A DNA stretch of 64,000 nt, taken from contig JAKAVM010000101.1 in NCBI GenBank assembly GCA_021827485.1, positions 2,766 to 66,765 of the forward strand, given 5' to 3'. The notes beneath the pieces are model-generated. The model was given only the letters and a program-made list of their open reading frames with translations. It had not been told where the DNA came from and searched no databases. The translations under genes and the position numbers were made by a program. The stretch comes from Actinomycetes bacterium. GTDB lineage: Bacteria > Actinomycetota > Acidimicrobiia > Acidimicrobiales > JAKAVM01. This document shows, piece after piece, positions 4,882 to 54,754 of this stretch (positions within the stretch are counted from its first letter, which is position 1; every line of letters begins with the position of its first letter).

Positions 4882-4908
4882 GGCAAGAACTATTCAATAG
4901 CGCCAGGG

Positions 4909-6279: not shown

Positions 6280-6490
6280 GGTGGGCGCTCGATTGGTTGG
6301 TGGGCGCTCGATTGGTTGGTGGGCGCTCGATTGGTTGGTGGGCGCTTCTATTGGGTAGTGGGCGCTCGATTGGTTGGTGGGCGCTCGATTGGTTGGTGGG
6401 CGCTCGATTGGTTGGTGGGCGCTCGATTGGTTGGTGGGCGCTCGGTTGGTTAGTGGGCGCTTCTATTGGGTAGTGGGCGCTCGGTTGGTT
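6280..6490. repeat. Tandem repeat with 19-bp unit ggtgggcgctcgattggtt, about 11 copies with a few variant units
   Basis: Period 19 read directly (6280, 6299, 6318 ...). Variant units read ggtgggcgcttctattgggta. Confidence 0.9.
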
Positions 6491-6748
6491 AGGGCTGGCT
6501 CGCTATTATGAGCAAAAAGGGGCAAGACCTTCCAATACGCCATAGCTGGCCCCATCGACAACTCCGGCTGCCAGAGGCTTTGCATAGGTTTCAAACAAAG
6601 TGATGACAACCTTCAAGAATCATCTTGCGATTCCACAGGTCGGTGCGCCAGGATAAAGTTTGGAAACTCCCTGTAAAAAAGATTAGCTTTTAGTTATAAA
6701 TGTTTGGAATAGTGCTATTGAATACTTTGAAAGATTTTTGATAAGCGG

Positions 6749-26738: not shown

Positions 26739-28952
<2,214 letters not shown>

Positions 28953-33127: not shown

Positions 33128-33322
33128 ATGACAAAGCATCTAATTGATATAGACGAAGCAATTCTTACAGCTGCACAAGCTGAGTTGGGGACGGCGACGA
33201 TGAAAGATACAGTTCATGAGGCTCTCCGCCGGACAACTGCGAGTCGGAGTACCCGAGTGAAGAAAGCGCTTGACCGTTTGGGCCGCCTCCAACTCGAACC
33301 CAGAGAGAATGCATGGCGCTGA
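33128..33322 (+). CDS. VapB-like (DUF2191-type) antitoxin, apparently orphaned
   Basis: MTKHLIDIDEAILTAAQAELGTATMKDTVHEALRR. No intact toxin gene lies downstream. Confidence 0.55.
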   Translation: MTKHLIDIDEAILTAAQAELGTATMKDTVHEALRRTTASRSTRVKKALDRLGRLQLEPRENAWR

Positions 33323-34252: not shown

Positions 34253-36795
34253 ACAATCACAGTATAGAATTTGTCGCTAAAGTGGGCAGCGTGAATGATG
34301 ATAAGAATACCGATGGCCTCAGCGACCTAGAGCTTCCAAGCGTTGAAGTAGTGTTTGGGCTTATAGCGAGTCTGTTGCGCCAGAGGCGCCAAATGGCATT
34401 CGATGATTTGGTCCATCAAGTCGTAGGCCAAATGGAATCTATTGGTGATGAAGCCCTACTAGAAAACTCGGTGTCTATTATCATCGATAAATTGGTCGAA
34501 ATGGATTTTGCCCTGATGATGATACATCCCGATATTTTGGTTACTCCTTCATCATTATTCAATCGTGCGGTACTAACTCATCGCATTACTGAGGAAGAGG
34601 TAGACAACAGTTTAGTTCACATTGCTGGTGATTTGCTCCCCTTCACTTGGTTTAGTTTGCCTATATATCTTGTTTCAGGTGAGGAGTTGAAAAGATTCGA
34701 GATTGGGAATGGAGAAGAGAGTTGGGCAGGTCCTCCAGGTTGGCTTGATAGATTTGAACAAGGTTCAATGTTGGCCTTTAGCCTCGATTGTGATTCGGGA
34801 TTGTTGTCGATTGAGCCCGTGAATGGTTTATTCGAACTTGACAGGGAACTGATCGAGCAATTACGCGAAGCTTACGATATAGAAGTTGAAGGGTCTGGAC
34901 TTCCAGTCCGCGCAGATGAAATAGCTACGCGAGTTATTCTAGAGAGTCCGCTTACCTTTGCGAAACCTGTCTTGCCTCTCACTGAACTCCTTGATGCAGC
35001 AGGGCTGGAAAGTCGCGGTAGCGAGTACGTCCACGATGAATCGGTATGGGCTGCACGCGAAATACTTGGTGCGGCACTGGAGATTTCCGAGCAATTAGAT
35101 GATTCTAACCTCCGGATGCAGGCAATGAAAGTACTAACCTGTTTCTGGAATGGTGAGCGAAACCATGGAAAGCTGCGCGAAGCTCTTGCGTCTTTGCGAA
35201 TCCCGGCAATTGCATCCACAATCGGTAATGTGTTAGTCGGTGATGAAACCGATTCTCTATGCCTTGACGAGATTGACGGATTTCTAGCCGCGTTACTAAT
35301 GGTTGGTTCGAATACTTACGATTGTGCCGCTGTTCACTGGCTTGCCGCCCTTGTGGCGGAGAATCGCCGTGATTTGGTCACTGCCCAAGCTCGCCTTGAG
35401 CGCGCTGTAGAATCAGATCCGAATTGGCCTTTAGGACTGGATCGTCTTGCGTGGTATCTTTCGGATCGTGGAGATGCAAACAGGGCAGTTAAACTTTGGC
35501 AGCGCTTAGCAGAATATCAAGATGTCGATGTTGACTTGCGCGAAGTTGGAAAGTTTGCAACAGGCGAAGGCCCTTCACTTGGCCGCAATGAGCCATGCTG
35601 GTGTGGCTCAGGGCGTAAGTTTAAGCAGTGTCATCTTGGGAGGCCAACTCTAGCACCGCTGGTAGATCGAGTGAGTTGGCTATATCGCAAGGGTGTTGCA
35701 TATCTTGAGCACAATGCCCAGGACTCAATGCAGCAATCGTACGAATTAGCGCTTATTCGTGCAGGAGGTGATTCCAGTGAAAGTGCGATTGATAAGGCTT
35801 TTGAAGACCCACTTCTCGTCGATGTGATGTTTAGTGAGGAGGGTTGGTTCGAGAGTTTTGTTGACGAGAGGGGGCCATTGCTTCCCGACGATGAAGCACT
35901 TCTTGCTCGGGCGTGGTGCTATACCCAACGGACACTATTTGAGATTGAGGAGGTTCATATCGGGGAGGGACTTATAGTCCGAGATCTTCGTAGCGCTGAA
36001 GTTATTGAGGTACGCGAACGCGCTTTTAGTTACCAAGCGCAAAAAGGAATTGTCATCTGCGCTCGCGCTTTGCCTGATGGAGTTAGCCATCAGTTTTTTG
36101 GAGGAATGTTCTACGTACCTCCAGGTTATGAGGGGCAACTCTTGGATCTCTTAGACGAAGGTGACGGTGAGGGCATTCTGGAGTGGGTTAGTGCTTCTGA
36201 AAAGCCACCAACCATGTATAATAGAGAATCTGAATTGTGGGTATTTTGTAAGGCACTTGTCGAAGGTAATGACATTGGACAGATGCGCGAGGCTCTCGAT
36301 GAAATGTTTATCATCGAGGATAAAGATAAATGGCGTCAAGTATTCGAGCTTCCAAATGGCGATTCGGTCCTTCGGGCCAGTATTTGCCTTGTTGGAGAAT
36401 CTATTCAAGTTGATACCAATAGTGTCGAGCGTATGGATCGGGTGCTTGAGATGCTTGAGAATAAAGTTTCAGGATACCGTCTGGTTTCAAATGAGAGAAA
36501 GGAATTTGACTTTGCAGACCTTCCTCAAGGCGATCGTCCAAAGCAAGAGCGTATTGATGATCCAAAGCTCCGTGAATACATGAAGAAATTCATAGCTGAG
36601 CAGGAACTGAAGTGGTGTGATGAAGAGATTCCAGCCCTTGGTGGTATCACTCCACGTCAAGCAGCACAAGACCCGACTCGGCGCGAGTCATTGGATCGGC
36701 TCTTGCTTAGCTACGAACGTGATAGCGATGAAGAAGATGAAGAACTGATCATGCAGTACCCACCTCGTCTGCGAAAACTCCTCGGGATAGGATAA
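34225..36795 (+). CDS. Large SEC-C-motif protein, function unknown
   Basis: NEPCWCGSGRKFKQCH (SEC-C zinc motif) mid-protein. The start is uncertain. The last 89 bp lie inside direct repeat DR-L. Confidence 0.55.
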   Translation: MSPHYRQELNNHSIEFVAKVGSVNDDKNTDGLSDLELPSVEVVFGLIASLLRQRRQMAFDDLVHQVVGQMESIGDEALLENSVSIIIDKLVEMDFALMMIHPDILVTPSSLFNRAVLTHRITEEEVDNSLVHIAGDLLPFTWFSLPIYLVSGEELKRFEIGNGEESWAGPPGWLDRFEQGSMLAFSLDCDSGLLSIEPVNGLFELDRELIEQLREAYDIEVEGSGLPVRADEIATRVILESPLTFAKPVLPLTELLDAAGLESRGSEYVHDESVWAAREILGAALEISEQLDDSNLRMQAMKVLTCFWNGERNHGKLREALASLRIPAIASTIGNVLVGDETDSLCLDEIDGFLAALLMVGSNTYDCAAVHWLAALVAENRRDLVTAQARLERAVESDPNWPLGLDRLAWYLSDRGDANRAVKLWQRLAEYQDVDVDLREVGKFATGEGPSLGRNEPCWCGSGRKFKQCHLGRPTLAPLVDRVSWLYRKGVAYLEHNAQDSMQQSYELALIRAGGDSSESAIDKAFEDPLLVDVMFSEEGWFESFVDERGPLLPDDEALLARAWCYTQRTLFEIEEVHIGEGLIVRDLRSAEVIEVRERAFSYQAQKGIVICARALPDGVSHQFFGGMFYVPPGYEGQLLDLLDEGDGEGILEWVSASEKPPTMYNRESELWVFCKALVEGNDIGQMREALDEMFIIEDKDKWRQVFELPNGDSVLRASICLVGESIQVDTNSVERMDRVLEMLENKVSGYRLVSNERKEFDFADLPQGDRPKQERIDDPKLREYMKKFIAEQELKWCDEEIPALGGITPRQAAQDPTRRESLDRLLLSYERDSDEEDEELIMQYPPRLRKLLGIG

Positions 36796-36816
36796 GGAAC
36801 AACTAAACAGGTAACT
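36707..36816. repeat. DR-L, the left copy of a perfect 110-bp direct repeat flanking the CRISPR-Cas locus
   Basis: ttagctacgaacgtgatagcgatgaagaagatgaagaactgatc...aactaaacaggtaact is identical at 46687-46796 (offset 9980 bp). Identity breaks on both sides. Confidence 0.95.
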
Positions 36817-36996
36817 AGTCAGATGGGCTGGACGAAATTACTTGGAAAATTGGGCGTTTATTGCTTAATTGGTCTGCAAATGTATCCGATGACTATATGA
36901 ACGTAGTTTCTTAAGATTGGATTGTGCGCAATGGATTCAAAGGTGAAAACTGTTCAAGTGGGAGATTCAACTAGCACCTATAAAATATAGCTCCTC

Positions 36997-38676
36997 ATGG
37001 AAGCTCCCTTGGAGAACGATATTCAAATCAGCGTCGAGCCTGAGCTAGTTCCAGCACGAATGGTGAATGAGTTCGCGTACTGTCCGCGTTTGTTTTATCT
37101 CGAATGGATTGATTCACAATTTGTTGATAACGATTATACCGCTGATGGCAGCTATAAGCATCGGGCAATGGACGTGGAAACTGGTGCTGCTCCTTTACCT
37201 GAGGATGGTAAATTGAAGGAGGCACGGTCACTTCTTTTATCTTCGACGAAGTTGGGCCTGGTTGCCAGAATCGATTTAGTTGAAGGAAACGGTGATGAAG
37301 TTCACCCAGTTGATCTGAAAAGGGGACGACCTGCTCCAACGCCAGAAAGAGCGTGGGAACCAGACCGAGTACAGGTGTGTATTGCAGGCCTATTACTTCG
37401 AGAAGCTGGCTACAACTGCAATTCGGGTTATCTCTCGTATGCCGCTACACGCGAACGGGTCGAAGTTATTTTTGAAGAAAAATTGATTACCAGGACGCTT
37501 GAATTGTTAGGAGATTTGCGGCAAGTTGCATTAAACGCCCAAGCCCCACCTCCACTTATCGCAAGCCCTAAGTGCCCTCGTTGTTCAATGGTAGGGATTT
37601 GCCTGCCTGATGAGAAAAATGCTCTATCTGAAAGAAGTCAGCGTCCTATTCGTAAGCTGTTGCCCAGCGATCCAGCATCAGCTCCGCTTTACGTAGTTCA
37701 ACAAGGGGCAAAGATTGGCTTGAGTTCAGGCCGGGTCACGGTTGAATGCGAAGGCAAGGAGACTGTTTCTGTCCGAGCAATTGACGTTTCTCAAATATGT
37801 ATTTACGGCAATATTCAGATTAGTTCGCAAGCAATCCGTGAGATGATGGCGAGGCAAGTGCCGATATGTTGGTTTAGCTATGGAGGTTGGTTCGCCGGTA
37901 TAGCCGAGGGTCTACCATCAAAAAATATTGAGCTTCGGGCTCGACAAGTCGCACGGGCACATACAGGTTCTTCTGAAATTGCTGGTTCTATCGTAAGAGG
38001 AAAGATTAGAAATTGTAGAACTCTTTTGAGACGTAATTCCAGAACCGATGTCGCTAACACAATTGAATCATTGGCCAGGATCGAAGCATCAATTGCCAAC
38101 GACTGTCCGATAGAATCCTTACTTGGTTACGAAGGTGCGGCAGCTCGTCTTTACTTCGAGTCGTTTCCTGCCATGATACGTCCTGATCTAGGATTACCAG
38201 GGGGGCCTTTTTGTTTTGAGTCACGAAATCGGCGGCCTCCCTTAGACGCTGTCAACTGTCTTCTCTCCTACGTGTACGCGCTTTTAGTCAAGGAACTGAC
38301 TGTCACAAGCTTGGCGGTAGGATTCGATCCGTACCTTGGTTTTTATCATCGTCCGCGATTTGGCCGTCCAGCTCTTGCCCTTGATCTTGCAGAGGAGTTT
38401 CGGCCGTTGGTGGGCGATTCGGTAGTTATTCAACTTATCAATAACGGCGAGGTTCATCCTTCTCACTTTATTGTGCGGGCAGGGGGAGTAGCTCTCACTC
38501 CTGCTGGTCGTAGAGCAGTACTTAGTGCTTTTGAAAGAAGACTTAAAAAGGAAATTCGGCATCCTATCTTCGGTTATAGTGTGACATATCGGAGGCTTTT
38601 TGAAGTTCAAGCACGGTTGCTGGGGGCCACGTTACTTGGCGAGATACCAGCCTATACAGCGTTCACAACCCGTTAG
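36997..38676 (+). CDS. cas1: Cas4-Cas1 fusion (adaptation nuclease/integrase)
   Basis: The N-terminal Cas4/RecB-type domain has C29 in FAYCPRLFYLEW, VDLKRG and CPRCSMVGIC, giving a 4-Cys cluster. The Cas1 part has YEGAAARLYF, NCLLSYVYALL and GFYHRPRFGRPALALDLAEEFRP. Confidence 0.9.
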   Translation: MEAPLENDIQISVEPELVPARMVNEFAYCPRLFYLEWIDSQFVDNDYTADGSYKHRAMDVETGAAPLPEDGKLKEARSLLLSSTKLGLVARIDLVEGNGDEVHPVDLKRGRPAPTPERAWEPDRVQVCIAGLLLREAGYNCNSGYLSYAATRERVEVIFEEKLITRTLELLGDLRQVALNAQAPPPLIASPKCPRCSMVGICLPDEKNALSERSQRPIRKLLPSDPASAPLYVVQQGAKIGLSSGRVTVECEGKETVSVRAIDVSQICIYGNIQISSQAIREMMARQVPICWFSYGGWFAGIAEGLPSKNIELRARQVARAHTGSSEIAGSIVRGKIRNCRTLLRRNSRTDVANTIESLARIEASIANDCPIESLLGYEGAAARLYFESFPAMIRPDLGLPGGPFCFESRNRRPPLDAVNCLLSYVYALLVKELTVTSLAVGFDPYLGFYHRPRFGRPALALDLAEEFRPLVGDSVVIQLINNGEVHPSHFIVRAGGVALTPAGRRAVLSAFERRLKKEIRHPIFGYSVTYRRLFEVQARLLGATLLGEIPAYTAFTTR

Positions 38677-38689
38677 GAGTTGAAGACCA

Positions 38690-38989
38690 ATGGCTAACCG
38701 ACGCCGTCATCTTATCGCGTATGACATACATGATCCCAAGAGACTTAGGCAAGTTCACAAAGTATTGGTTTCCTATGGATACTCTGTCCAGTACTCGGTC
38801 TTTGTATGCGACCTAACAACTCAGGAAAAGATCGCCTTCCGATGGGATATAGGGGAAGTAATAAACCATCGCGAAGACAGCGTTGTTATCGTCGATTTAG
38901 GGGAAGCGGGGGAAGCGTCCAGTGATCGATTTGAATTCCTCGGGGTATCGCTCGAGTTACCTGAGGATGGAGGGGTAACGATAATATAA
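38690..38989 (+). CDS. cas2: Cas2
   Basis: 99 aa with HLIAYDI (catalytic Asp context) and VQYSVFVCDL, 13 bp downstream of cas1. Confidence 0.85.
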   Translation: MANRRRHLIAYDIHDPKRLRQVHKVLVSYGYSVQYSVFVCDLTTQEKIAFRWDIGEVINHREDSVVIVDLGEAGEASSDRFEFLGVSLELPEDGGVTII

Positions 38990-39050
38990 GTTTAGAAAAT
39001 TGTGAATTATCTCTGGTTTGACCCGCAAATAACGGAGAGCGACAGAGTAT

Positions 39051-39437
39051 CTAATGGCTTGATAGGTTTATAACAAAGATAAAAACGACTCTATGAGGAT
39101 CGCCATTTGAAGAAGTTTGATAGGAATCACTGTATTGGTAGTCGATTCGCCCTGCGCCACTGATCTCGTAATGAATTGTCCTTGAAAACCCGTCTCGTTT
39201 AGGTTTGCCAGCTTTCCCGCGAAGTATATTTGCCTTGCCAACTAAAGGGATCTTACCAGGCGATTGAGCAACGTGATCCCAAAATCGCTGGGCACTTTGC
39301 AACCCAATCCGTTGAACAAGCTTGTCCCAAAGGGATAAATATTTTTGATGAACCAACACTCGGTATTGTGGAGCCAGATCTGGTTTGCCGCCGGGGCGTC
39401 GAGCAGGCACAAACGGCTGATAGGAACCACAAGGCAT
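39051..39437 (-). CDS. Putative RelE/ParE-superfamily toxin
   Basis: The C-terminal half, ILRGKAGKPKRDGFSRTIHYEISGAGRIDYQY...VVFIFVI, resembles the RelE/ParE beta-sheet core. It lies 25 bp downstream of an antitoxin-like gene. Confidence 0.4.
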   Translation of the reverse strand: MPCGSYQPFVPARRPGGKPDLAPQYRVLVHQKYLSLWDKLVQRIGLQSAQRFWDHVAQSPGKIPLVGKANILRGKAGKPKRDGFSRTIHYEISGAGRIDYQYSDSYQTSSNGDPHRVVFIFVINLSSH

Positions 39438-39462
39438 CTAAGTTCAGACGGCAAATGTCAGA

Positions 39463-39987
39463 TTATGCGGGTCGGGATACTTCGATAAAGTTATCTGGAT
39501 CGAAAGTCTCGCAAAGTGTCGCACTGTCGTTTGGATCACTAAGTACATTTGCTGTGGTTTCCCAGTCGGAAACCAGTTGCCGTAAGCAATCCAAATGGTT
39601 TGAATCGACGGCCTCAAGCAAAGATTGACGTAGTTCTTCAAGAAAGGTGTCAAGATCTTCGTCGTCAAGATACTGGAGCCAGGAAGCACCTGGGAAATCT
39701 TCACCTGTTCGGAGGGCTGCAGGTTTGCGACTTGCTTTAGTGGCTTGGAGATGAGCACGAACCCAATAGAGGATTTCATCCGAGCGATCAAGCTGGTCTT
39801 CTGGCACCATAAGAATACCGCTTTGCCCCTCAATAGATAGTCGAACTGGCTGGTGGCGAGCAAGATCGACCATACCACGAACATCGGATTCGAGTTCTTC
39901 AAGGGTATGGGCCGAAGGTTCAATGATTGCCATACTCTTATTATAGAAGTTTGTAAAGGAGTTTTCACTAAGAATCATCAGAGCCAA
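39463..39987 (-). CDS. Putative Phd/YefM-type antitoxin with a long C-terminal tail
   Basis: MAIIEPSAHTLEELESDVRGMVDLARHQPVRLSIEGQSGILMVPEDQ looks like a Phd/YefM N-domain. The real start is probably the internal ATG at 39933. Confidence 0.45.
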   Translation of the reverse strand: MALMILSENSFTNFYNKSMAIIEPSAHTLEELESDVRGMVDLARHQPVRLSIEGQSGILMVPEDQLDRSDEILYWVRAHLQATKASRKPAALRTGEDFPGASWLQYLDDEDLDTFLEELRQSLLEAVDSNHLDCLRQLVSDWETTANVLSDPNDSATLCETFDPDNFIEVSRPA

Positions 39988-40196
39988 TCCAACTTGCTCA
40001 AATACCGCACATAATTATCTATTTACCCAGCCAGCAATGACATCGAAAGGAGGTATAAATATATCCAAGACAACACCCCAGGTAATCAAAGCTTGAGCGC
40101 AACATCGGCTTTCAACCGGGGTCTGTGGTAGTCTAAAATTAGGTGGTAAAGAATTACTGGATCACCTGGTAAAGAGTTGTGGAATAGTCATAACCG
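39988..40196 (+). promoter_or_regulatory. Candidate CRISPR leader and divergent promoter region
   Basis: AT-rich 209-bp non-coding stretch between the TA operon start and the first repeat. Function is inferred from position only. Confidence 0.45.
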
Positions 40197-42687
40197 GCGG
40201 ACATTTCTTTTATCCATCATCGATACCGCGACTCAGCCGGACTTACCGGACCAGAATACGATGGATCAGCGGACATTTCTTTTATCCATCATCGATACCG
40301 CGACCAGCTCAAGCCGAGGCTAAATTATCCCAAGGTATTAGAGTGCGGACATTTCTTTTATCCATCATCGATACCGCGACATGAGTACCGTAATACACGT
40401 TTGTGGCGATGGATACAGCGGACATTTCTTTTATCCATCATCGATACCGCGACGACTATTTCGGGGTTAACACTAACAATATATTCTGGCGGACATTTCT
40501 TTTATCCATCATCGATACCGCGACTATTTCTGCCTCTCACCGGCCGCACGTTATGAGGGCGCGGACATTTCTTTTATCCATCATCGATACCGCGACGGTT
40601 GAGGCCCGGGACGTTTACGGCTGGTCCGTTGCGGCGGACATTTCTTTTATCCATCATCGATACCGCGACCCGGCTCAGTATAGACACTATAAGGAATTCA
40701 TAGATGCGGACATTTCTTTTATCCATCATCGATACCGCGACAGTACTGTTTGCATAGGTGCCTCCTACTTTCCGTGTGCGGACATTTCTTTTATCCATCA
40801 TCGATACCGCGACGCGTTGGTGAAGTTTGCATCCGTGAAGTCTCCTCCGGTGCGGACATTTCTTTTATCCATCATCGATACCGCGACCCTTGCGCATCTA
40901 ATGGACTTGTAATATCCACATTGGCGGACATTTCTTTTATCCATCATCGATACCGCGACTCGAGTCCACCCAGTGCCAGAATTCTTCTGGTGAGAGCGGA
41001 CATTTCTTTTATCCATCATCGATACCGCGACGTGGCTGGCCTGAAGAGCAGGCAAGAGGAGAAACAGCGGACATTTCTTTTATCCATCATCGATACCGCG
41101 ACCCGGGGAATCTATACTAACAAGGTAGATCTGGATCTAGGCGGACATTTCTTTTATCCATCATCGATACCGCGACGCGATCTGCCGCGTACACTTGCCC
41201 GCCATGCTCATGCGGCGGACATTTCTTTTATCCATCATCGATACCGCGACCCGATCTTCGAGCTGCCACTCTTGAAGGTGCCAATCTTGCGGACATTTCT
41301 TTTATCCATCATCGATACCGCGACAAGACAATCAAGGAGGTAGTAATTTGAGCAATATTGCGGACATTTCTTTTATCCATCATCGATACCGCGACTAAAG
41401 GGACTTGGCAGTGCAGCCGATAAGATCGCTGGCGGACATTTCTTTTATCCATCATCGATACCGCGACGAGTAAAAGAACTGATCGTAGGTTTGCAGAAGT
41501 TTTGGCGGACATTTCTTTTATCCATCATCGATACCGCGACTTGGCTGTAGAGCTTAGATCGGCTAGTGAGGTGTCGCGGACATTTCTTTTATCCATCATC
41601 GATACCGCGACTGGACGACTTATATCTGCTGGGAGAGGGTAATTGGAGCGGACATTTCTTTTATCCATCATCGATACCGCGACTAGATGTTGCCCTATGT
41701 GTCGGTTGACGACGTAATAGCGGACATTTCTTTTATCCATCATCGATACCGCGACTTGAAAATGCTCAAGATCTCCTGCAAGTATTTCAAGCGCGGACAT
41801 TTCTTTTATCTATCATCGATACCGCGACGAGTTGACGGATGTATACATCGAGATACGCGATTACGCGGACATTTCTTTTATCCATCATCGATACCGCGAC
41901 CTCGGCTGCCCGTTCGACGGCTGTGCCTGTCGCTGGCGGACATTTCTTTTATCCATCATCGATACCGCGACTCATCCCAGTTCGGTTTTTGTACTAATGG
42001 GAGAGTGGCGGACATTTCTTTTATCCATCATCGATACCGCGACACGGCCCTACCCACGGTTGGGCTAAATCTTGTTCCGGCGGACATTTCTTTTATCCAT
42101 CATCGATACCGCGACGAAGACATGGGTGACGTTTGCGAGGAGTGTTTTTGGGCGGACATTTCTTTTATCCATCATCGATACCGCGACTTGAGGAAGGGGC
42201 ATCCCAGGATGCCGCGACGATGGCGGACATTTCTTTTATCCATCATCGATACCGCGACGCTAGTAGCGGTAAGGATCGAGCGAGCGATAAAAGAAGCGGA
42301 CATTTCTTTTATCCATCATCGATACCGCGACCTAACAGCGCAACTTAGTTATGGCATACCTGAACATGCGGACATTTCTTTTATCCATCATCGATACCGC
42401 GACCTCCAACTTGAGTGCCGCCTGCTAGAAACGCTCTTGCGGACATTTCTTTTATCCATCATCGATACCGCGACGGCACATGTCGTATATGGTAGAGCGC
42501 TTAGGGATGAGCGGACATTTCTTTTATCCATCATCGATACCGCGACATGTGGCAGGATTGCTAATCGAACTTGGTGCGCTTGCGGACATTTCTTTTATCC
42601 ATCATCGATACCGCGACCCGCCGATCATGCGTGAGGGCAGCATCTTGGCGTGCGGACATTTCTTTTATCCATCATCGATACCGCGAC
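40197..42687 (+). CRISPR. CRISPR array with 35 repeats of 36 nt and 34 unique spacers of 34-40 nt
   Basis: The repeat is GCGGACATTTCTTTTATCCATCATCGATACCGCGAC, first at 40197 and last at 42652-42687. The only variant is C-to-T at 41811 in repeat 23. Strand is inferred from the GCGAC 3' end, which resembles the ...GCAC end of Cas12b repeats. Confidence 0.98.
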
Positions 42688-43015
42688 ACCTATCGAAATT
42701 AGGTACACTTTACAAGGGATAACCGGAACGAGTTCGAGCGGTATCCTTCTGCTGATTCTACCAGATTTGATTACAACGCATTCTGGCGATCGGATCTGTA
42801 ATCTATCAGGAGATTCCCCCGTGCGAGCGCTAACCGAGATCTGACAGTCAAATCAGCCCTCGCAAAGAGCGTGACTCTACAAGAAATGCACTCGGATGCC
42901 CTACTTTTGCAGGGTCGCCTTTCACGGCACCGCTACTCCGAGCCTCGCTGCCACCTAAGTGCTAGCTAGCCCTAGTCTAACACGATGCAGTGCCGTGGTC
43001 AACAACTCCGGGCAT

Positions 43016-46000
43016 TTACTTCGGGAGTCGCGAGCGAAGTGCCTTCTGAGCCTTGGCCTGCCTGTTCTTGGGTTTCGACGAGGGAGCGGACCCTTCGGAA
43101 GTCTTTTGGGCGTAAGGCGTCAGAGCTCTTAGAGCAATATTGGCCGCGGCGTTCTGGTCGGCATCTTCCAATCGCCACTCAGAGGGATGCGCATCGATCG
43201 GGAATGCCAGGTGGGTTCCTCCACGGTCTGGTACCGGTACGTTGCAATCATTGCCCGGAGTCGGTGGTTTCCCGCTATTAATCGCGCTGTCAACATCCAA
43301 GACTGCTTGGTGCAGCGGCCAGAGTTCCCCGCCATCCTTCTTAGCCTTGGTCTCAGCTCGCCGGGCAGTCTCGATCTTCTTTGACCATTGCTCAGCAAAT
43401 TTATTCTTGCCGGTCAGATCTGCCGCAGGCGTCAGATGGACTCGCACTCCGCGCTCTTTGAGCGCGAACGATTCCTGGCTCGTCCCGAACGGATTAACGG
43501 ATTTGAGCGCAAGTCCGTGCAACTCACATAGCTCGTTCAAATACTTTCCGGTATCTGCCTTGCCCCACAAGCTTACTTTGCGGTTCTCTACATGGCCTCG
43601 CTTCTCATCAGTTCGATACTTACTCAAGTCCTCAAAGGCGATACCGTGACACCGGTTCACGAGAGCAGTTCGGACAATCGCCGACGCGATCTGCTTGGAG
43701 CAATCGTCTCGTATTGCTTTTCTGAGTTCGAGTATTTCCGCTCCGAAGCCATCAGGGAGTTCCGTTCCCCGCGGCCCGTCAGGAGTCGGGCGGGCAAACA
43801 CGCGAGCGCTATTGCGATAGAGGTCGTAAAGTAGATTGAGGCGGTCGAGCGGAGAAAGCCACCGTACGCCCCGGAACTGGACCGGACCATCGAAGCCGAG
43901 TCTCCGTGCTGGGCTCTCGGCGAGAAGCCCGCCGATCACCATTGTCCGGACCCCTCGCCATACACTCCGGAGAATCTCATCCTCTTCGGTCCATAAGGTT
44001 GCCGCCTTATCCGCTAGACCTGTCCGGTTCTTCTCCATTGCCGCCAACCACATGCGAATATCCGTGACGTTGCCATTAGCGTCTACCGCGACGCCCGAGC
44101 ACGACTCGTTCCACAGACCGCTGACCCGGTGAGTCTGGTTTTCCTCGGCAATTCTCTTCCATCGGTCATACAATCGCTTGATCGGCAAGGCGTCATCATG
44201 AGATCCAAGCGACGCGGCAACTCGTGCCAGGAATCCATGCAGTAACATCCAACGCTTGAAATTCTTGAGCACTTGGTGCGCCAGCTCTTTTTGCGTTGTC
44301 TGAGGCCGATAGTCTTCACCCACACACCCTGCGACCCTCTGAGCAAGCAGTTTCTCCGATAACGACGGATGATATGAACGCTGGCCGACCACCACGTTCC
44401 CCGAAGAACTCCCGTCTCTCCGTGCCCACAAATCTGTCCCCTCGATGCGCCTGTACACACATGATGACCCGTCCGGACCACCAATTTCGACCGAAATGGT
44501 TCCTGCGTCGGGTTGTGGCTGGCTGTCCTTTTTGCATACAGCAACTACTTCGTTCTCGTCGCAGACGTGGAGTACCGCATAGCTAGCTTCTGCCCGGATA
44601 CCCAAGTCTATTCCCAATACCCGCCAACCGGGCGCAAGATCATCTTCCTTCGGCCACCTACCCTTGAGGTTTCGTACCGGTATCAACCCCTTCTTCTCCC
44701 GCCAGGTGATGGCAGGTCCGGCAGGTTTCAGTCTCAACGAAAGGGAGACGTGCCACCTCGGCAGCGAGTCCCTCCCCGGATCGCTTCCGCGTTCGCAATA
44801 GAGCTGGGCACTTGTCCAATCTTGCTTTGCAGCGACAGAGGCGACATCCGAACCGCCAACCGCCAACCGCCCCAGTCGATCACGTCTTGCCGCGCGCGGA
44901 CGACCAGGGTAGTCCCCGCGGTCCTTTCGCATGCGGGCCGACACCATGCGACCTGTGACTCTGCGAAGGGACGCACCATCCCACACCTTGTTAAAGGTCA
45001 CGCGCCCAGGGACACCTTGTACATTCCATTTCGCTGGCCACACATTCGTTCCGAACCTGACCCACAGCGGGTGCTGAGCGGGATCGGGGTGGCAGATGGC
45101 AGGAAGCTTGAGCCGTTGCTGGCGTTCCTCCTTATCCACCAGCTCCGCGTAATTACCGAGCAATTTGCCAAGCCCATCGAGTCCGCCCAGATCGTCCACA
45201 TGACCGGCGATCCACTTGAAAAGCGCATGGTCCCCGAATGCACGACCTGTAATGGCTGAGTCCGCTTGAAGTTCACTTACCGCCACCAATCTGTCTTCTG
45301 CCGTAGCGAGACCTTTCCATTCCGATATGACGTCGGCACTGTTCCTCGTCGCCTTACGCCGGATCCGGTAAGGACCGCCACTTTCCTCCGCACGTTCACG
45401 TTCGTACTCCTCCAAAGTCTTGAGTGGACCATCTGCTAATTCATCACGCCCCACTTTGATGTCGTCGTCGAGTTTCAGTAGTTCGTCTACTCGCTTGCGA
45501 ATATTGGTCGTTTGTGGGATGACAGCGGCGGCGGCGCCCACGACAATTTCACACTGCCCGTCGACTCCGATGTCACGCCAATTGCCGATGAAATTGGCCT
45601 TTTCGATCCGGAGGCGTATTGCCTCCGACCAGGGACGGGTGCCCTTCTTCCCGATCTTCAGTCTGGTTCCCTCGACATCACCCAAAAGCTTGCTGAGCTT
45701 GTCTGCGTCGTCATCGGAGATCGACGCTGAGGGATCCAACTTACAGCTCTCCGCCATTCGCTCCAAACGCAGCGTCAACTTATCTTTCCGACCCGGCTTC
45801 TTCCTGGATTCGAGAACGATCTTGATGGGATCGCCCCCGGATGAAACAGGTTCCAGTGCACCAGCCATTGAAGCAAACAGCCCCGCAATGTTGGCTCCGG
45901 CTTTGATAACGACCGATGTTAGCGCATCTTCCTTCTTCGCGACGCCTGCCCAGTCGGTTCCTTTGCCGGCGCCATACCGGTTTGACACCCAATCTCGTGC

Positions 46001-46618
46001 CGGAGCGTTGAGGCTGTTCTGGACGAGGGACGCATCAGTTTCGTCGTCTTCACTTTCCCCGGGTGCAAAGAGAATGCTGATAATGCTGGATGCTAGCTGT
46101 GTGCCATGCGGCTCGACCGCCTTCAACATGCCGCCCAGCATGTCTTCAAGGGGTTCAAGGGAATCGGTTCCGATCTTGCATTCCTGAGCGAAGTCAAGCC
46201 ACCCCTGTCTCCTGTCGATGATGGCAGTTCCCTCCCCCAGAGCACATTCGACCGCTGTCTTGGCGTCGACCACCCACTCATCGATTTCCGGATTAGACAA
46301 TCCGCAACCCGACAGATGTTCCCGAAAACGATTCTGCCGCTCATCCGGGTCGATGAGATACGGGCACGCTGTGACCTTTTCTCCCCGTTCGGGAGACAAC
46401 CAGTACGCGCAAAGTAGTGACCGGGCAAGCGCCCGCCGATCATCTCCAATATTTGCAAGGTCGCCCGGCGATACTGAGGCTCGGATCGTCAGAAACGCAT
46501 CAAGGAAGATTCCCTTGGCCCTGTTCACACCCACATGGTGGTTCCAGAGGGCTCGGGCATCCTCGTCACTCGTCCATAGTCGGGCAGTATAAGTACGGAT
46601 CGAATTCTTCTCCTTCAT
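43016..46618 (-). CDS. cas12b: Cas12b-family (type V-B-like) effector, 1200 aa
   Basis: RuvC-I is VLGIDLGIR (D671, nt 44606-44608). RuvC-II is IAFEDLS (E996, nt 43631-43633). RuvC-III is EDADQNAAANIALR (D1154, nt 43157-43159). Further blocks resemble AacCas12b as I recall it: ALWNHHVGVN, FGDHALFKWIA and HPDPAQHPLWVRF. Confidence 0.85.
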   Translation of the reverse strand: MKEKNSIRTYTARLWTSDEDARALWNHHVGVNRAKGIFLDAFLTIRASVSPGDLANIGDDRRALARSLLCAYWLSPERGEKVTACPYLIDPDERQNRFREHLSGCGLSNPEIDEWVVDAKTAVECALGEGTAIIDRRQGWLDFAQECKIGTDSLEPLEDMLGGMLKAVEPHGTQLASSIISILFAPGESEDDETDASLVQNSLNAPARDWVSNRYGAGKGTDWAGVAKKEDALTSVVIKAGANIAGLFASMAGALEPVSSGGDPIKIVLESRKKPGRKDKLTLRLERMAESCKLDPSASISDDDADKLSKLLGDVEGTRLKIGKKGTRPWSEAIRLRIEKANFIGNWRDIGVDGQCEIVVGAAAAVIPQTTNIRKRVDELLKLDDDIKVGRDELADGPLKTLEEYERERAEESGGPYRIRRKATRNSADVISEWKGLATAEDRLVAVSELQADSAITGRAFGDHALFKWIAGHVDDLGGLDGLGKLLGNYAELVDKEERQQRLKLPAICHPDPAQHPLWVRFGTNVWPAKWNVQGVPGRVTFNKVWDGASLRRVTGRMVSARMRKDRGDYPGRPRAARRDRLGRLAVGGSDVASVAAKQDWTSAQLYCERGSDPGRDSLPRWHVSLSLRLKPAGPAITWREKKGLIPVRNLKGRWPKEDDLAPGWRVLGIDLGIRAEASYAVLHVCDENEVVAVCKKDSQPQPDAGTISVEIGGPDGSSCVYRRIEGTDLWARRDGSSSGNVVVGQRSYHPSLSEKLLAQRVAGCVGEDYRPQTTQKELAHQVLKNFKRWMLLHGFLARVAASLGSHDDALPIKRLYDRWKRIAEENQTHRVSGLWNESCSGVAVDANGNVTDIRMWLAAMEKNRTGLADKAATLWTEEDEILRSVWRGVRTMVIGGLLAESPARRLGFDGPVQFRGVRWLSPLDRLNLLYDLYRNSARVFARPTPDGPRGTELPDGFGAEILELRKAIRDDCSKQIASAIVRTALVNRCHGIAFEDLSKYRTDEKRGHVENRKVSLWGKADTGKYLNELCELHGLALKSVNPFGTSQESFALKERGVRVHLTPAADLTGKNKFAEQWSKKIETARRAETKAKKDGGELWPLHQAVLDVDSAINSGKPPTPGNDCNVPVPDRGGTHLAFPIDAHPSEWRLEDADQNAAANIALRALTPYAQKTSEGSAPSSKPKNRQAKAQKALRSRLPK

Positions 46619-46686
46619 ACCTAGAGCATATCATGGTGTTAGTTTCAGCTCGCCGAAATTTCTAAGAGGCTGTCGCTATTTTGATG

Positions 46687-46796
46687 TTAGCTACGAACGT
46701 GATAGCGATGAAGAAGATGAAGAACTGATCATGCAGTACCCACCTCGTCTGCGAAAACTCCTCGGGATAGGATAAGGAACAACTAAACAGGTAACT
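46687..46796. repeat. DR-R, the right copy of the perfect 110-bp direct repeat
   Basis: Identical to 36707-36816. It duplicates the last 89 bp plus 21 bp downstream of the SEC-C-motif gene. Confidence 0.95.
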
Positions 46797-46803
46797 CGCT
46801 GAT

Positions 46804-47934
46804 TCATGACCGCAAAATCCATTGTTTGAAAAAAGGGTCGTCGACACTCCACTCGCCCGCTCTTTCGACGATTAGGTCTGCCGATTCGAGAGCGGTCAAC
46901 GCCTTTTTTACTGACGATGCATTGGCTACAGCTGCTCGCGATACAAATGCCGAGCTAAATGGATTACGTTCCGCGCCTTGTGCCAATGCAAGCAACACTT
47001 TTCGCTGATTATTTGTCAGGCGGCTGAATACGCTAGCGTAGTTATTCGATTGATGGGAGATTGCATTTTCCATACCACTGAGAACTGTATCGGTTCCAAT
47101 TGTATGATCCCCTAATGCCCACGATTCATAGGCCAAGCGCTGAATGTCATTCGGCACGGGGTTGCTGAGTGAGAGTATAAGCCTTGCTGCCGCTTCGCTA
47201 ATAGGTTTTTCGGAACTTTCAGCTCTCGCTCGTAAGTACTCAATCATTGTAGTTTCTGGTAGTGGTTCAAGAAACATCGTTTCGGTCATTCCGTATAGTG
47301 GTGAGCTATGAGTGAGGAGCAAGTTTTTCATCATGTGACGGTTCGACCCTGCTATCGCAAGAGAAACCAATGGATAAGTATCGGACATCGACTTGAAAAA
47401 GTTTGCCATATTTACTCCGATAGAAGTTATCTCTTGGAATTCATCGAGAATTAATACAGCTGGCCTATCGTTAGCTATCCGATTGAGAAGTGAATATACC
47501 TCTTCTATCGAACGAAGATAGTCTAGATTAGAGAGATGTGGGCTAAAGCTAAAGGTGGGACGATTGTCGAGACCTAAGGAGATTGATGGGGTAATTCGGA
47601 ATCGACGCAAGAAATCGGATATCCCATCTCGGCTGCGTCTCCAGCCACCCGGAACTCGGTAAGCACTGGTGACTAGTGCGCTGGAAAAGTCAGCCAAGCT
47701 AGGTGTCTTGAGAACTGACACCGAAACGACTGCTCCAGAGCGGGGGCGTGCTTGAATTCTCCCAGCTGCCGCCTCAAGCAGCGATGTCTTGCCATAGCGT
47801 CGTGGCGATATGAGAGAGATATTGATCGAATCGTTCAATCGCTTGGTTAGTGTTGAGAGTTCTTCCTTGCGTCCAGCAAAATGTGGTCCAGAAACTGGGG
47901 ATCCATACTGATAGGGATTGCCGCTGCGGTACAT
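46804..47934 (-). CDS. AAA-type ATPase (Arch_ATPase/DUF234-like), function unknown
   Basis: Walker A SPRRYGKTSL and Walker B LILDEFQE, with a C-terminal winged-helix-like tail. Confidence 0.65.
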   Translation of the reverse strand: MYRSGNPYQYGSPVSGPHFAGRKEELSTLTKRLNDSINISLISPRRYGKTSLLEAAAGRIQARPRSGAVVSVSVLKTPSLADFSSALVTSAYRVPGGWRRSRDGISDFLRRFRITPSISLGLDNRPTFSFSPHLSNLDYLRSIEEVYSLLNRIANDRPAVLILDEFQEITSIGVNMANFFKSMSDTYPLVSLAIAGSNRHMMKNLLLTHSSPLYGMTETMFLEPLPETTMIEYLRARAESSEKPISEAAARLILSLSNPVPNDIQRLAYESWALGDHTIGTDTVLSGMENAISHQSNNYASVFSRLTNNQRKVLLALAQGAERNPFSSAFVSRAAVANASSVKKALTALESADLIVERAGEWSVDDPFFKQWILRS

Positions 47935-47939
47935 TGCCA

Positions 47940-47991
47940 GTATTATACCACTAGTATTATGTAGTTGGTATTATACCTTAGGTAAAATACC
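47940..47991. promoter_or_regulatory. Four copies of a GTAWWATAC(C)-like motif directly upstream of the ATPase gene
   Basis: gtattatacc (47940), agtattatg (47953), ggtattatacc (47967) and ggtaaaatacc (47981). The first copy is 6 bp from the start codon at 47934. Confidence 0.4.
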
Positions 47992-48131
47992 TCAAGCCAA
48001 GCGTAAGCATAGTACCTGGCTCTTATAACCTATCGGTGGGTCAACTTTGCTAGTTTTCGACTATTACCGATCAATACGAGTGGGCTTACCTGCAATTTCC
48101 TAGGTCAGCTCAAAGGTCACTCAATAGAACC

Positions 48132-48164
48132 TTGTAAATCCGAATATCAAGTTCGGATTTACAA
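48132..48164. promoter_or_regulatory. Perfect 13-bp inverted repeat (operator- or hairpin-like) upstream of the second ATPase gene
   Basis: ttgtaaatccgaa-tatcaag-ttcggatttacaa, 23 bp upstream of the ATG at 48187. Confidence 0.4.
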
Positions 48165-48186
48165 AACAATATGCTACTGTATTAGT

Positions 48187-49371
48187 ATGATTATTCGAGA
48201 AATAACCCAGGAACTGAGAGAATCAGCAGCCGAATTTCCTGCAGTCACTATTCTTGGGCCTCGCCAGTCAGGTAAGACAACACTTGCAAGATATGCATTC
48301 CCGAATTACCGATATATTTCCTTGGAGGATCCTGATACCAACCTCAGGGCCAATGATGACCCTCGAGGACTGCTCTCCGAACTAGGTGACGGTGGCATTA
48401 TCGATGAGATCCAAAGAGTTCCCGATATCGCTTCATATCTTCAAGGGCTCATCGATTCAAAGCGAGGCAACGGTCGATATATCCTTACGGGATCTAACCA
48501 GCCGATTTTAAGAGACACCGTTTCACAATCTCTAGCGGGGCGGACATCTATCTTGGAATTGATGCCGTATTCCTTCCAAGAAATTAATCAATACGAGTCA
48601 ATCCAAAATGCTTTCGAGCTGATTATCAAAGGTTCATTCCCGAGGGTATACGAAGAAAGAGTGAGGCCAGATAGGTTTTATAATTCATACGTACAAACCT
48701 ACATTGAGCGAGATGTTCGTTTGATGATCAATGTCAGAAACACTCTTCAGTTCCAAAGGTTCGTCACTTTGCTTGCCGCTAGAGTTGGTCAGCTGCTGAA
48801 CTTTGAGTCGATTTCCAACGATATAGGAATTTCTGCAACTGCTCTTAGGAACTGGTTTTCTGTTCTCAAAGCAACCTATGTGGTCTACGAACTCCGCCCA
48901 TGGCATGCCAATATACGAAAAAGGCTTATTAAATCATCGAAGGTTTACTTTACCGACGTAGGATTAGCAGCTTTCTTGTTGGGGATTCACACATCTGATC
49001 AATTGAGAACTCATCCACTGCGGGGGAGCCTATATGAAAACCTCATCCTCACAGAGCTTCTCAAAGGAGCATACAATAAAGGGGCCAGGCCGGACCTCTA
49101 TTTTTTTCGAGACTCCGGTGGAAATGAGATTGATCTGGTTGCCCAAATCGCAGGCAAATGGATTCCAATTGAGGTTAAGTCCTCTGCCACGTTTTCGAAG
49201 GACTTTGTTCGGACAATCAATATGTTCCAAGGTCTCGGAATCGGAGAGGTCGAAAATGGCATAGTTTTCTATAATGGTGAGGCCAATATGAATTACAACG
49301 GTATTTCAATCTTGAATCCTCTCCATATAGGTACTCGAACGCTTTGGGACGTAATTCAAAGCCCAGGTTAA
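48187..49371 (+). CDS. AAA ATPase with DUF4143-like C-terminal domain, function unknown
   Basis: Walker A GPRQSGKTTL, IIDEIQ, and the C-terminal YFFRDSGGNEIDLV nuclease-fold-like segment typical of this family. Confidence 0.7.
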   Translation: MIIREITQELRESAAEFPAVTILGPRQSGKTTLARYAFPNYRYISLEDPDTNLRANDDPRGLLSELGDGGIIDEIQRVPDIASYLQGLIDSKRGNGRYILTGSNQPILRDTVSQSLAGRTSILELMPYSFQEINQYESIQNAFELIIKGSFPRVYEERVRPDRFYNSYVQTYIERDVRLMINVRNTLQFQRFVTLLAARVGQLLNFESISNDIGISATALRNWFSVLKATYVVYELRPWHANIRKRLIKSSKVYFTDVGLAAFLLGIHTSDQLRTHPLRGSLYENLILTELLKGAYNKGARPDLYFFRDSGGNEIDLVAQIAGKWIPIEVKSSATFSKDFVRTINMFQGLGIGEVENGIVFYNGEANMNYNGISILNPLHIGTRTLWDVIQSPG

Positions 49372-53524: not shown

Positions 53525-54724
53525 ATGAACATCGAAAATTGTGGTGAACGGAGACACTGGCAAATGAAGAATGGAAGATGTCAGGGTGACGGAGAAATTA
53601 GCCCGACAAAGTCAAAAGCTCTTCGCGCTGTAAGTCTCTTTGCGGGTGCTGGCGGTCTTGATCTTGGGATTGAAGAGGCTGGCTATTCCATTTGTTACGC
53701 AGTCGAGCACGACTCCGTCGCCGTTGAAACACTCAATCGAAATCGACGATCGTGGTTTCCGAGCCTGCAAGAAGTTCGCCCATTGGACATCACGAAGCTT
53801 GATCCTCACCAAGTAATGGATGAAATAGGAGTAGTTCGAGGAGAGATTGACCTGTTGGTTGGTGGACCACCGTGCGTCGCGTTCTCAAAGTCTGGTTTTC
53901 ACCTTGAGTACAAACGACTTGGGAATGATCCGCAAGCAAGTCTCCTTGATGATTACCTTCGCTTTCTCGATGCGATGCGTCCCGCTGCATTCATGATGGA
54001 AAATGTCTTCGGACTCGCTTATCGTAATCAGTCGGCTCCATTCCTCGAAAAGTTACGCTCTGGAATCACACATCTGGGCTATTCATTTTCCTATGAAGTC
54101 CTAAATTCGGCAGACTATGGAGTACCTCAGAATCGCCAGCGCCTATTCCTATTGGGATCACGGAACGGAAATCCACTCGGTCATCCACTTCCTACACACT
54201 GGGGAGAACATGAGCGACGGAAGCCCCCGGCGAACGTCTCGGCACTTCTTCCTCATGTTACGACCCGACAAGCATTCAAAGGCCTACGTACTAAGGCCGA
54301 ACCAGGCGAAGAAGTGAATGGAAAATATGGGTATCTCCTACCTGCAATCCCACCGGGGGGAAATTACTTGTTTTACACAGACCATGAGGGACACCCAGAG
54401 CCTCTCTTCCAATGGCGATCTCGATATTGGACTTTCCTTCTCAAACTTGATCCCAAACGTCCTTCTCCAACATTGCAAGCACAGCCTGGTCCGTATGTTG
54501 GACCCTTTCATTGGCAAAATCGACGCCTTCGAGTTCCTGAGCTGAAGCGGCTTCATACATTCCCTGATGAGTACGAGTTTGCAGGAACTCGTCGAGAAAT
54601 CCAAGTTCAAATCGGAAACGCCGTTCCACCCCTAATTGGGAAGATAGTTGGAGAGGCAGTTCGGGATCAATTAATGGGAGTTTTTCTAGATAATGTTGCA
54701 AAGCCAGTTCCAACTGTCTCGTAG
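53525..54724 (+). CDS. dcm: DNA (cytosine-5)-methyltransferase
   Basis: Motif I LFAGAGGLDLG, motif IV GGPPCVAFS, motif VI ENV, motif VIII QNRQRLFLLG and motif X GNAVPP. Confidence 0.9.
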   Translation: MNIENCGERRHWQMKNGRCQGDGEISPTKSKALRAVSLFAGAGGLDLGIEEAGYSICYAVEHDSVAVETLNRNRRSWFPSLQEVRPLDITKLDPHQVMDEIGVVRGEIDLLVGGPPCVAFSKSGFHLEYKRLGNDPQASLLDDYLRFLDAMRPAAFMMENVFGLAYRNQSAPFLEKLRSGITHLGYSFSYEVLNSADYGVPQNRQRLFLLGSRNGNPLGHPLPTHWGEHERRKPPANVSALLPHVTTRQAFKGLRTKAEPGEEVNGKYGYLLPAIPPGGNYLFYTDHEGHPEPLFQWRSRYWTFLLKLDPKRPSPTLQAQPGPYVGPFHWQNRRLRVPELKRLHTFPDEYEFAGTRREIQVQIGNAVPPLIGKIVGEAVRDQLMGVFLDNVAKPVPTVS

Positions 54725-54754
54725 TTTTCCTAAGGCTTTAGCTTCGCCTCAGGG

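Follow-up and report, generated by a model that had tools for sequence, protein, structure and literature searches.

How does a complete CRISPR-Cas system come to lie between two identical copies of the tail of a neighboring gene? We addressed this question in a 64,000-nt stretch of DNA, here called the window, from an Actinomycetes bacterium of the order Acidimicrobiales (GenBank assembly GCA_021827485.1, contig JAKAVM010000101.1, positions 2,766 to 66,765 of the forward strand; coordinates given without a locus name count from the first letter of the window). In this window, a type V-B CRISPR-Cas locus is bracketed by direct repeats of 110 bp that are built from the 3′ end of a SEC-C-motif gene. 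CRISPR-Cas systems on mobile or exchangeable islands are already known, but their movement between genomes is only partly understood beyond plasmid, phage, and Tn7-like carriers, and the locus offers a concrete and testable case. The explanation that we favor, and to which we give an even chance, is that the repeats were left as a scar when DNA integrated additively (Campbell type) into the SEC-C 3′ end. At present, the locus acts as a fixed, non-autonomous slot in the chromosome, with CRISPR and defense cargo that is swapped between strains by homologous recombination.

The left copy of the repeat (attL-like; 36707 to 36816, + strand) and the right copy (attR-like; 46687 to 46796, + strand) were identical at 110 of 110 positions, lay in direct orientation with their starts 9,980 bp apart, and lost all similarity abruptly at each of the four edges. 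A search that allowed up to 3 mismatches found only these two copies of the 110-mer in the window, with none expected from shuffled sequences. The left copy consisted of the final 89 bp of the SEC-C gene (stop codon at 36793 to 36795) plus 21 bp downstream. The right copy had no gene body attached and ended 7 bp before the stop codon (46804 to 46806) of a convergent ATPase gene. Removal of one copy together with the interior would leave the SEC-C and ATPase stops 28 bp apart. On all of these points our results agree with the original prediction, which was made from the sequence alone and had described two identical 110-nt repeats 9,980 bp apart, their makeup from the SEC-C end and 21 bp downstream, and an excised state with the stops about 28 bp apart; its suggestion that the 110-mer be sought elsewhere turned up no further copy within the window.

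The original prediction had also proposed that both junctions be checked for misassembly. A chimeric contig could have arisen by fusion of two strain variants with a common SEC-C tail. The metagenomic source and the coexistence of strain variants with different cargo lend this possibility some substance, as does the finding that Logan contigs (k = 31) break within the repeat, ending exactly 30 bp into it from either side. Such breaks, however, are what is expected of a genuine two-copy repeat. We used BLAST to compare 710-bp queries, each centered on one junction, with loci obtained by exact-protein look-ups; the contigs with junctions were MEGAHIT assemblies (k = 141) from different samples and metagenome-assembled genomes (MAGs) from NCBI. 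The right junction was 100% identical over the 710 bp in L001 to L004, L006, L008, L012, and L015, and at the left junction L018, L019, and L021 matched at 100% and L020 at 99.9%. Moreover, one 22-kb MEGAHIT contig (L011) covered both copies, from the ATPase gene through SEC-C, and alternative flank-repeat-flank junctions were never seen. Because a k of 141 exceeds the 110-bp repeat, the junction k-mers come from single reads that must bridge the repeat, which is a strong argument against misassembly. Given the recurrent k = 141 junctions and the repeat-spanning contig, we regard an assembly artifact as essentially refuted and, for practical purposes, excluded.

The SEC-C gene (34282 to 36795, + strand; GTG start at 34282, with the longest open reading frame [ORF] beginning at a TTG at 34225) is the insertion target. 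It encodes 837 amino acids (aa), with the Pfam SEC-C motif at residues 435 to 452. We collected 259 homologs, the closest of them outside the species at 46% identity, and found that the C terminus of the window protein, ...RLRKLLGIG, is conserved: homologs at 40 to 46% identity share the ending ...RLRxLLGIG, and the terminal motif (...QHPDRLRRLLGIG) is common to homologs at 35 to 46% identity. Since the homologs share this C-terminal motif, the repeat represents a native, conserved host gene end and not an imported foreign site, which bears out the earlier claim that it duplicates the 3′ end of a host gene. The left copy is thus the native, family-conserved SEC-C 3′ end plus 21 bp. It completes SEC-C with the conserved C terminus, such that the gene is restored at one junction. 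The right copy is a displaced SEC-C fragment that runs on into the native downstream flank, the arrangement that an attL/attR or Campbell-type insertion produces.

In a Campbell-type integration, a circular DNA carrying the cargo and a copy of the final 89 bp of SEC-C with the 21 bp that follow would have recombined with the chromosome within the 110-bp homology at the SEC-C tail. SEC-C would have kept an intact end, now the left copy, and its original end would have been pushed about 10 kb away, where it would still adjoin the ATPase flank as the right copy. A circular intermediate would thus have existed, and the catalyst would have been either RecA acting on the 110-bp homology or a tyrosine integrase acting in trans.

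We turned to relatives of the SEC-C gene for states of the site before and after insertion. At 57 loci with SEC-C homologs from the Joint Genome Institute (JGI) metagenomes, there were no ATPase, leucyl-tRNA synthetase (LeuRS), HTH_20, or cas neighbors and no conserved synteny, so the ancestral site cannot be read from these distant relatives. Two loci from a single metagenome were informative. In the first (L052, 3639 to 5930), whose SEC-C homolog has 38% amino acid identity to the window protein, a second copy of the last ~312 bp of the gene, 95% identical, lies 1,980 bp downstream. Between the copies is a 1.67-kb toxin-antitoxin cargo that encodes an HTH_17 (excisionase-family) protein and an RSP_2648-type PIN protein and has no recombinase. 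In the second (L053, 2602 to 3155), which is 92% identical, the site is empty, and the gene end runs directly into the downstream gene. The downstream copy in the filled locus keeps the stop region of the empty site and the copy joined to the gene ends at a new stop, a pattern which indicates that the insertion entered the gene tail and displaced the original end. Judged by sequence, the pair thus shows both alleles of the geometry proposed for the window. The two small ORFs of the window cassette (p128 and p174, described below) showed no homology to the L052 cargo.

The closest relatives (L038, L040, and L042, at 45% SEC-C identity) carry a tyrosine integrase gene tail-to-tail with the SEC-C homolog and 64 to 116 bp behind it (all on the − strand: L038, 10936 to 12198; L040, 12624 to 13799; L042, 5460 to 6689). 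Between lineages, these integrases have been conserved better (76.6%) than SEC-C (71.5%). Homology between the lineages ends just beyond the integrase, and a variable region starts there. A comparison of L038 with L040 gave no evident jump in identity at the SEC-C tail of the kind that an element-borne gene end might leave. As support for an insertion, integrases next to SEC-C homologs are suggestive only. With a filled and an empty allele in one relative and integrases behind the gene in the closest ones, however, the tail of the SEC-C family gene is shown to be a recurrent insertion point.

What occupies this point in the species and its nearest kin? None of the recovered SEC-C variants of the species (cluster P0001, 10 members) is directly followed by the ATPase gene; in most of them (L018 to L021, L036, and L094), SEC-C is followed by cas4-cas1. 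A near-identical strain (L025, GCA_027390295.1; 99.83% identity over 6.4 kb of the right flank) has a SEC-C fragment of ~97 bp at the same place. Its right edge is the same as in the window and its left edge is different: the fragment starts at about position 14 of the repeat, lacks one GATGAAGAA unit, and carries one single-nucleotide polymorphism (SNP). A different CRISPR array, with the class-1-like repeat GTTTTCCCGGTCAATATGATCGGGCTTCATTGAAG, precedes this remnant at a distance of 10 bp (6349 to 6698 of that locus). The fixed right edge and variable left edge are as expected if the fragment is the original, in situ gene end. In a sister lineage (L022 and L023), which has 91 to 94% nucleotide identity over 12.5 kb of the left flank, homology stops exactly at the SEC-C stop codon (36792), and the protein gains the residues -INN. 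There, a pseudogene fragment homologous to p174 (54% over 39 aa by tblastn, with an in-frame stop) is followed by an IS3-family transposase gene (HTH_Tnp_1 plus HTH_21), where the contigs end (L022, 12515 to 13347). The same slot therefore holds alternative cargo, namely, a Cas12b system or another CRISPR array in the species and an IS3 insertion sequence (IS) in the sister lineage. Two further candidates for comparison were set aside: an ATPase homolog (P0131, 66% identity) lies in a different genomic context, and a short cluster member (P0250) is unrelated.

These observations can also be read as the work of a site-specific tyrosine integrase. The repeats would then be attachment (att) sites of an integrase-less island, similar to a cis-mobilizable element (CIME), that a cognate integrase element in the cell could still excise or move. 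Direct repeats of a gene 3′ end are the classic signature of such elements. The integrases right behind the SEC-C homolog in the closest relatives, the two different cargoes at the same site in the species, each beside a SEC-C remnant, the filled/empty polymorphism at the same gene end in a second family member, and the lack of a recombinase in the interior all speak for this possibility. We nevertheless consider it unlikely. Searches by tblastn with the relatives' integrases turned up neither an integrase nor a remnant of one, be it in the window or in the loci of the species, no empty or circular form has been seen, and half of the cassette is host-like in composition. In addition, the repeats vary considerably both in length (110, ~97, and 312 bp) and in the position of their edges, and 312 bp would be unusually long for an att site. 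Since lengths and left edges vary and the repeat is the host's own allele, homology-driven integration of a circle fits better than a fixed att core. The SNPs in L052 showed no switch in polarity between host and element around a core, and this, together with the arbitrary lengths, leans toward a single crossover of the RecA type.

The content of the interior also bears on how it arrived. Pfam, PADLOC, and NCBIfam searches with all interior ORFs detected no recombinase or transposase; matches were limited to Cas4-Cas1, Cas2, and Cas12b, with two further ORFs left unassigned. Nor did we find terminal inverted repeats at the ends of the interior. The earlier statement that no integrase, transposase, or terminal inverted repeat lies inside the repeats thus stood up to domain and repeat searches, and we rejected a transposon or CRISPR-associated transposon because the interior has no transposase domain and no terminal inverted repeats. 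Self-integration in the manner of a casposon, by the cassette's own Cas1 and with the 110 bp as a target-site duplication, is at first sight attractive, as the left repeat has a Cas4-Cas1 gene for a neighbor and casposons also target gene 3′ ends. It is nonetheless highly improbable. There are no terminal inverted repeats and no polB, known duplications of the Cas1 type measure 14 to 15 bp or one CRISPR repeat rather than 110 bp, and the analogous L052 insertion has the same architecture without a Cas1. On the grounds of polB, inverted repeats, and duplication length, we rejected a casposon.

No recombinase lies within ~10 kb on either side of the cassette, where the flanks hold housekeeping or defense-type genes. 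The sole transposase gene of the window (DDE_Tnp_1; 6895 to 8370, − strand) is ~28 kb away. A tRNA-linked island was ruled out, since the sole tRNA of the window lies 7.6 kb upstream of the left repeat and there was no Rfam match at 33 to 48.5 kb. The IMG/VR database returned nothing for a 47-mer of the repeat, both CRISPR repeats, Cas12b, or a SEC-C profile, and the PLSDB plasmids returned nothing for Cas12b or for the entire 10.4-kb locus. Scans for promoters and terminators did not rise above shuffled sequences, and literature searches returned nothing directly relevant on CRISPR loci flanked by direct repeats.

The interior proved to be a mosaic. The G+C content at third codon positions (GC3) is 0.61 for cas12b compared with 0.39 for cas4-cas1, 0.47 for cas2, and 0.38 to 0.48 for neighboring host genes; cas4-cas1, cas2, p128, and p174 are all host-like (0.39 to 0.47), and cas12b alone in the cassette appears foreign. 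Because of this contrast with a host value of ~0.4, cas12b looks recently acquired. Polymorphism follows the same division. The segment from 42652 to 46800 (leader region, cas12b, and right copy) contained 0 SNPs across at least 12 contigs, and SEC-C and the 5′ part of cas4-cas1 were polymorphic across samples. In one MAG locus (L036, GCA_027390235.1), positions 3100 to 5000, which correspond to 35950 to 37400 of the window, form a recombinant tract that is 92 to 97% identical to the window and extends from the SEC-C tail through the left repeat, where it has 5 SNPs, into the beginning of cas4-cas1. Within this tract, 82 bp across the repeat edge (36789 to 36870), including positions 36817 to 36870 of the spacer, are perfectly conserved. 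The mosaic SEC-C alleles (P0124 and L036) show that homologous recombination acts across the left junction.

Such a mosaic raises the possibility that the duplication was a side effect of a cargo swap at a chromosomal defense hotspot, in which linear DNA was joined by illegitimate or homology-facilitated illegitimate recombination. For example, the cas12b segment may have replaced an earlier effector module; no circular or excisable element would have been involved, and the identity of the copies would be recent or due to gene conversion. In line with this, the cas12b segment that adjoins the right copy is foreign and invariant, the adaptation module has a host-like composition and is polymorphic, and the left junction appears older than the duplication. 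The content of the site is hypervariable as well (the IS3 element and p174 pseudogene in the sister lineage and the other array in L025), and no recombinase is present. We find this origin doubtful, however, as illegitimate joins more often delete than duplicate, the same duplication of a gene tail would need an independent origin in L052 and probably in L025, and the integrases adjacent to SEC-C in relatives would be left unexplained.

Several observations weigh against the Campbell-type explanation that we favor. First, no empty site was found among the species contigs with SEC-C or ATPase variants, and the comparison with relatives that the original prediction had suggested thus yielded no allele of this species in which SEC-C runs directly to the ATPase gene; the only contigs on record with both genes are those that also hold the cassette. 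Likewise, no contig among the fetched loci had the junction of a circle (right end of the interior, repeat, left end of the interior). A pattern search for the empty site (left flank, 108 to 112 nt of any sequence, right flank) gave 0 matches in the JGI metagenomes and in the Genome Taxonomy Database (GTDB) genomes; these zeros are uninformative, since neither collection includes the species, and a search of the GTDB genomes with the SEC-C protein confirmed no relative. The polarity of the insertion in the window is accordingly argued by analogy with L052 and L053. Second, the relatives leave room for other histories. No right att site was found within 9.6 kb of the L040 integrase, where short matches occurred at chance level only, and the adjacency of the integrases to SEC-C may reflect one inherited event. 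Later deletion and slippage could likewise account for the shorter remnant in L025.

Third, the ages of the parts do not match simply. The junction of SEC-C with cas4-cas1 is present on haplotypes that are ~7% apart, whereas the two repeat copies are 0% apart; at 7% divergence, the probability of 0 differences in 110 bp is ~3e-4. Haplotypes and copies together require either that the event was recent or that gene conversion took place: either the duplication arose long after the adaptation module had settled at this site, or the copies were homogenized. For the Campbell-type event, this would mean that it is younger than the adaptation module's residence and that it may have accompanied the arrival of the foreign cas12b segment. 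Finally, the claim that everything between the repeats is one cassette is doubtful, since the interior is mosaic in both composition and genealogy. With a host-like, polymorphic adaptation side and a foreign, invariant cas12b, a single integration of the entire 9.9 kb is not assured, and nothing shows present-day mobility of the cassette. The attL/attR or Campbell-type signature was accordingly only partly upheld, in its geometry and its native 3′ end but not in a single mobile cassette or in an empty or circular form for the species.

How, then, does the locus compare with known systems? Integrative islands and prophages can use a gene's 3′ end as their insertion site and supply a replacement end, as e14 and phage 21 do in icd, and integrative elements of actinomycetes have att identity segments of ~50 to 110 bp. 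Like such islands, the locus has repeats built from the end of the target gene, an intact gene at one junction and a displaced end at the other, and accessory or defense cargo, and in relatives the tyrosine integrase lies tail-to-tail with the target gene. Unlike them, it has no integrase or excisionase, no empty or circular form has been seen for the species, the repeat consists of the host's own allele, with 100% identity, and half of the interior is host-like. Without an integrase, the locus fails as an autonomous island. CIMEs, which are att-flanked, recombinase-less, cis-mobilizable islands, have been described for the 3′ end of fda in Streptococcus thermophilus. The locus resembles them as an island at a gene 3′ end that is bounded by direct repeats and lacks recombination and transfer modules, but the species is not known to harbor a cognate integrative element whose att sites match. 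By description, the locus qualifies as a recombinase-less, att-flanked island, with its mobilization putative. A broader version of this idea would make the SEC-C tail a dedicated landing pad across the Actinobacteria for small, recombinase-less defense cassettes, from toxin-antitoxin (TA) modules to whole CRISPR-Cas systems, each of which carries or copies a replacement gene end and is moved in trans by tyrosine integrases similar to those behind the gene in relatives; the window would then hold a complete, active, and highly divergent Cas12b system as excisable, cis-mobilizable cargo. We think this quite improbable.

As in Campbell integration, a homology segment of arbitrary length (110, ~97, or 312 bp) is duplicated as direct repeats around the insert; in contrast to known cases, the circular donor is hypothetical, the interior has no replicon or plasmid genes, and PLSDB and IMG/VR gave no match. 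The locus also resembles chromosomal defense hotspots, in which variable cargo lies between conserved flanking genes and of which the work of Hochhauser et al. from 2023 is reportedly an example. It shares with them conserved flanks (SEC-C and the ATPase), alternative cargo among near-identical strains, and defense-type neighbors, and differs from hotspots in general by the long duplicated stretch of a flanking gene's tail that marks its slot.

Three features lift the locus above the routine: the recurrent use of a gene tail, the turnover of cargo at one chromosomal slot among near-identical strains (Cas12b system, other CRISPR array, or IS), and a very divergent Cas12b. In addition, the two identical 110-bp copies should enable RecA to delete the complete type V-B system precisely and possibly allow it to re-integrate. 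If the cassette is static, the locus is merely a well-documented insertion scar at a defense hotspot.

The system itself has the expected parts of a type V-B locus: a Cas12b effector, a Cas4-Cas1 fusion, Cas2, and a CRISPR array with 36-nt repeats. From the left repeat, an AT-rich spacer of 180 bp (36817 to 36996, + strand; GC content, 0.39) leads to the cas4-cas1 fusion (36997 to 38676, + strand; Pfam Cas_Cas4 plus Cas_Cas1; PADLOC Cas1g, E = 4.6e-186), which is followed by cas2 (38690 to 38989, + strand; Pfam CRISPR_Cas2, E = 1.5e-18; PADLOC Cas2g). Next come two small ORFs on the − strand, p128 (128 aa; 39051 to 39437) and p174 (174 aa; 39463 to 39987). The original prediction had listed the interior as cas4-cas1, cas2, a TA pair, the array, and cas12b; the Cas genes and the array were confirmed, and the TA label was not, as p128 matched nothing in Pfam, PADLOC, or NCBIfam and p174 had only a weak, sub-threshold match to DUF6247 in Pfam. 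The p128 ORF is called as a gene in independent assemblies, and both ORFs are kept in all cassette-bearing strains, with no match to a TA, defense, or Cas family.

The array (40197 to 42687, − strand) contains 35 repeats of 36 nt, which read GCGGACATTTCTTTTATCCATCATCGATACCGCGAC on the + strand, and 34 spacers of 34 to 40 bp. Spacers next to the cas12b-proximal repeat (42617 to 42687, with the repeat at 42652) differed between samples (L004, L008, L013, and L015), and the remaining array was shared. Because it is the cas12b-proximal spacers that vary, the leader probably lies on the cas12b side of the array, in the 328 bp that separate the array from the cas12b stop (42688 to 43015, − strand), and spacer acquisition appears to be ongoing, with the system active. 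This presumed leader region is also the candidate region for a trans-activating CRISPR RNA (tracrRNA), which type V-B loci include; neither Rfam nor simple local alignment for an anti-repeat at 42688 to 43015 gave a clear match.

The cas12b gene (43016 to 46618, − strand; 1,200 aa) was recognized by PADLOC as Cas12b (E = 6.2e-62 over residues 8 to 1189) and by Pfam as C2c1_RuvC-like (27.7 bits against a cut-off of 27). The 68 bp upstream of it (46619 to 46686, − strand), which form the right end of the interior, were identical in all contigs with the right junction. A word search of 5.8 billion proteins found one relative only with more than 50% identity (P0256, 53%), and the nearest other representative of a 50% cluster was 36% identical. 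By these comparisons, the protein is rare and very divergent. This divergence, together with the sharp difference in composition between effector and adaptation genes, sets the locus apart from other type V-B loci.

To the right of the cassette, the ATPase gene (46804 to 47934, − strand), which is convergent with SEC-C and forms the right flank in all loci, encodes an AAA/STAND-like protein with weak ATPase_2, AAA_14, and nSTAND1 matches. It has 10 SNPs in L025, and the next 5 kb have none. The right flank has the appearance of a defense neighborhood: the segments from 46804 to 49371 and from 53525 to 55900 together encode this ATPase, an AAA_14 plus DUF4143 protein that matches the PADLOC candidate system PDC-S01, and a cytosine methylase with a SacI-like restriction enzyme. 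To the left, a 64-aa ORF between leuS and the HTH_20 gene (33128 to 33322, + strand) encodes a VapB-like antitoxin that scores just under the Pfam cut-off, and no VapC partner of this ORF was noted. Farther upstream, katG (26739 to 28952, + strand), with a GC3 of 0.61, is as foreign-looking as cas12b.

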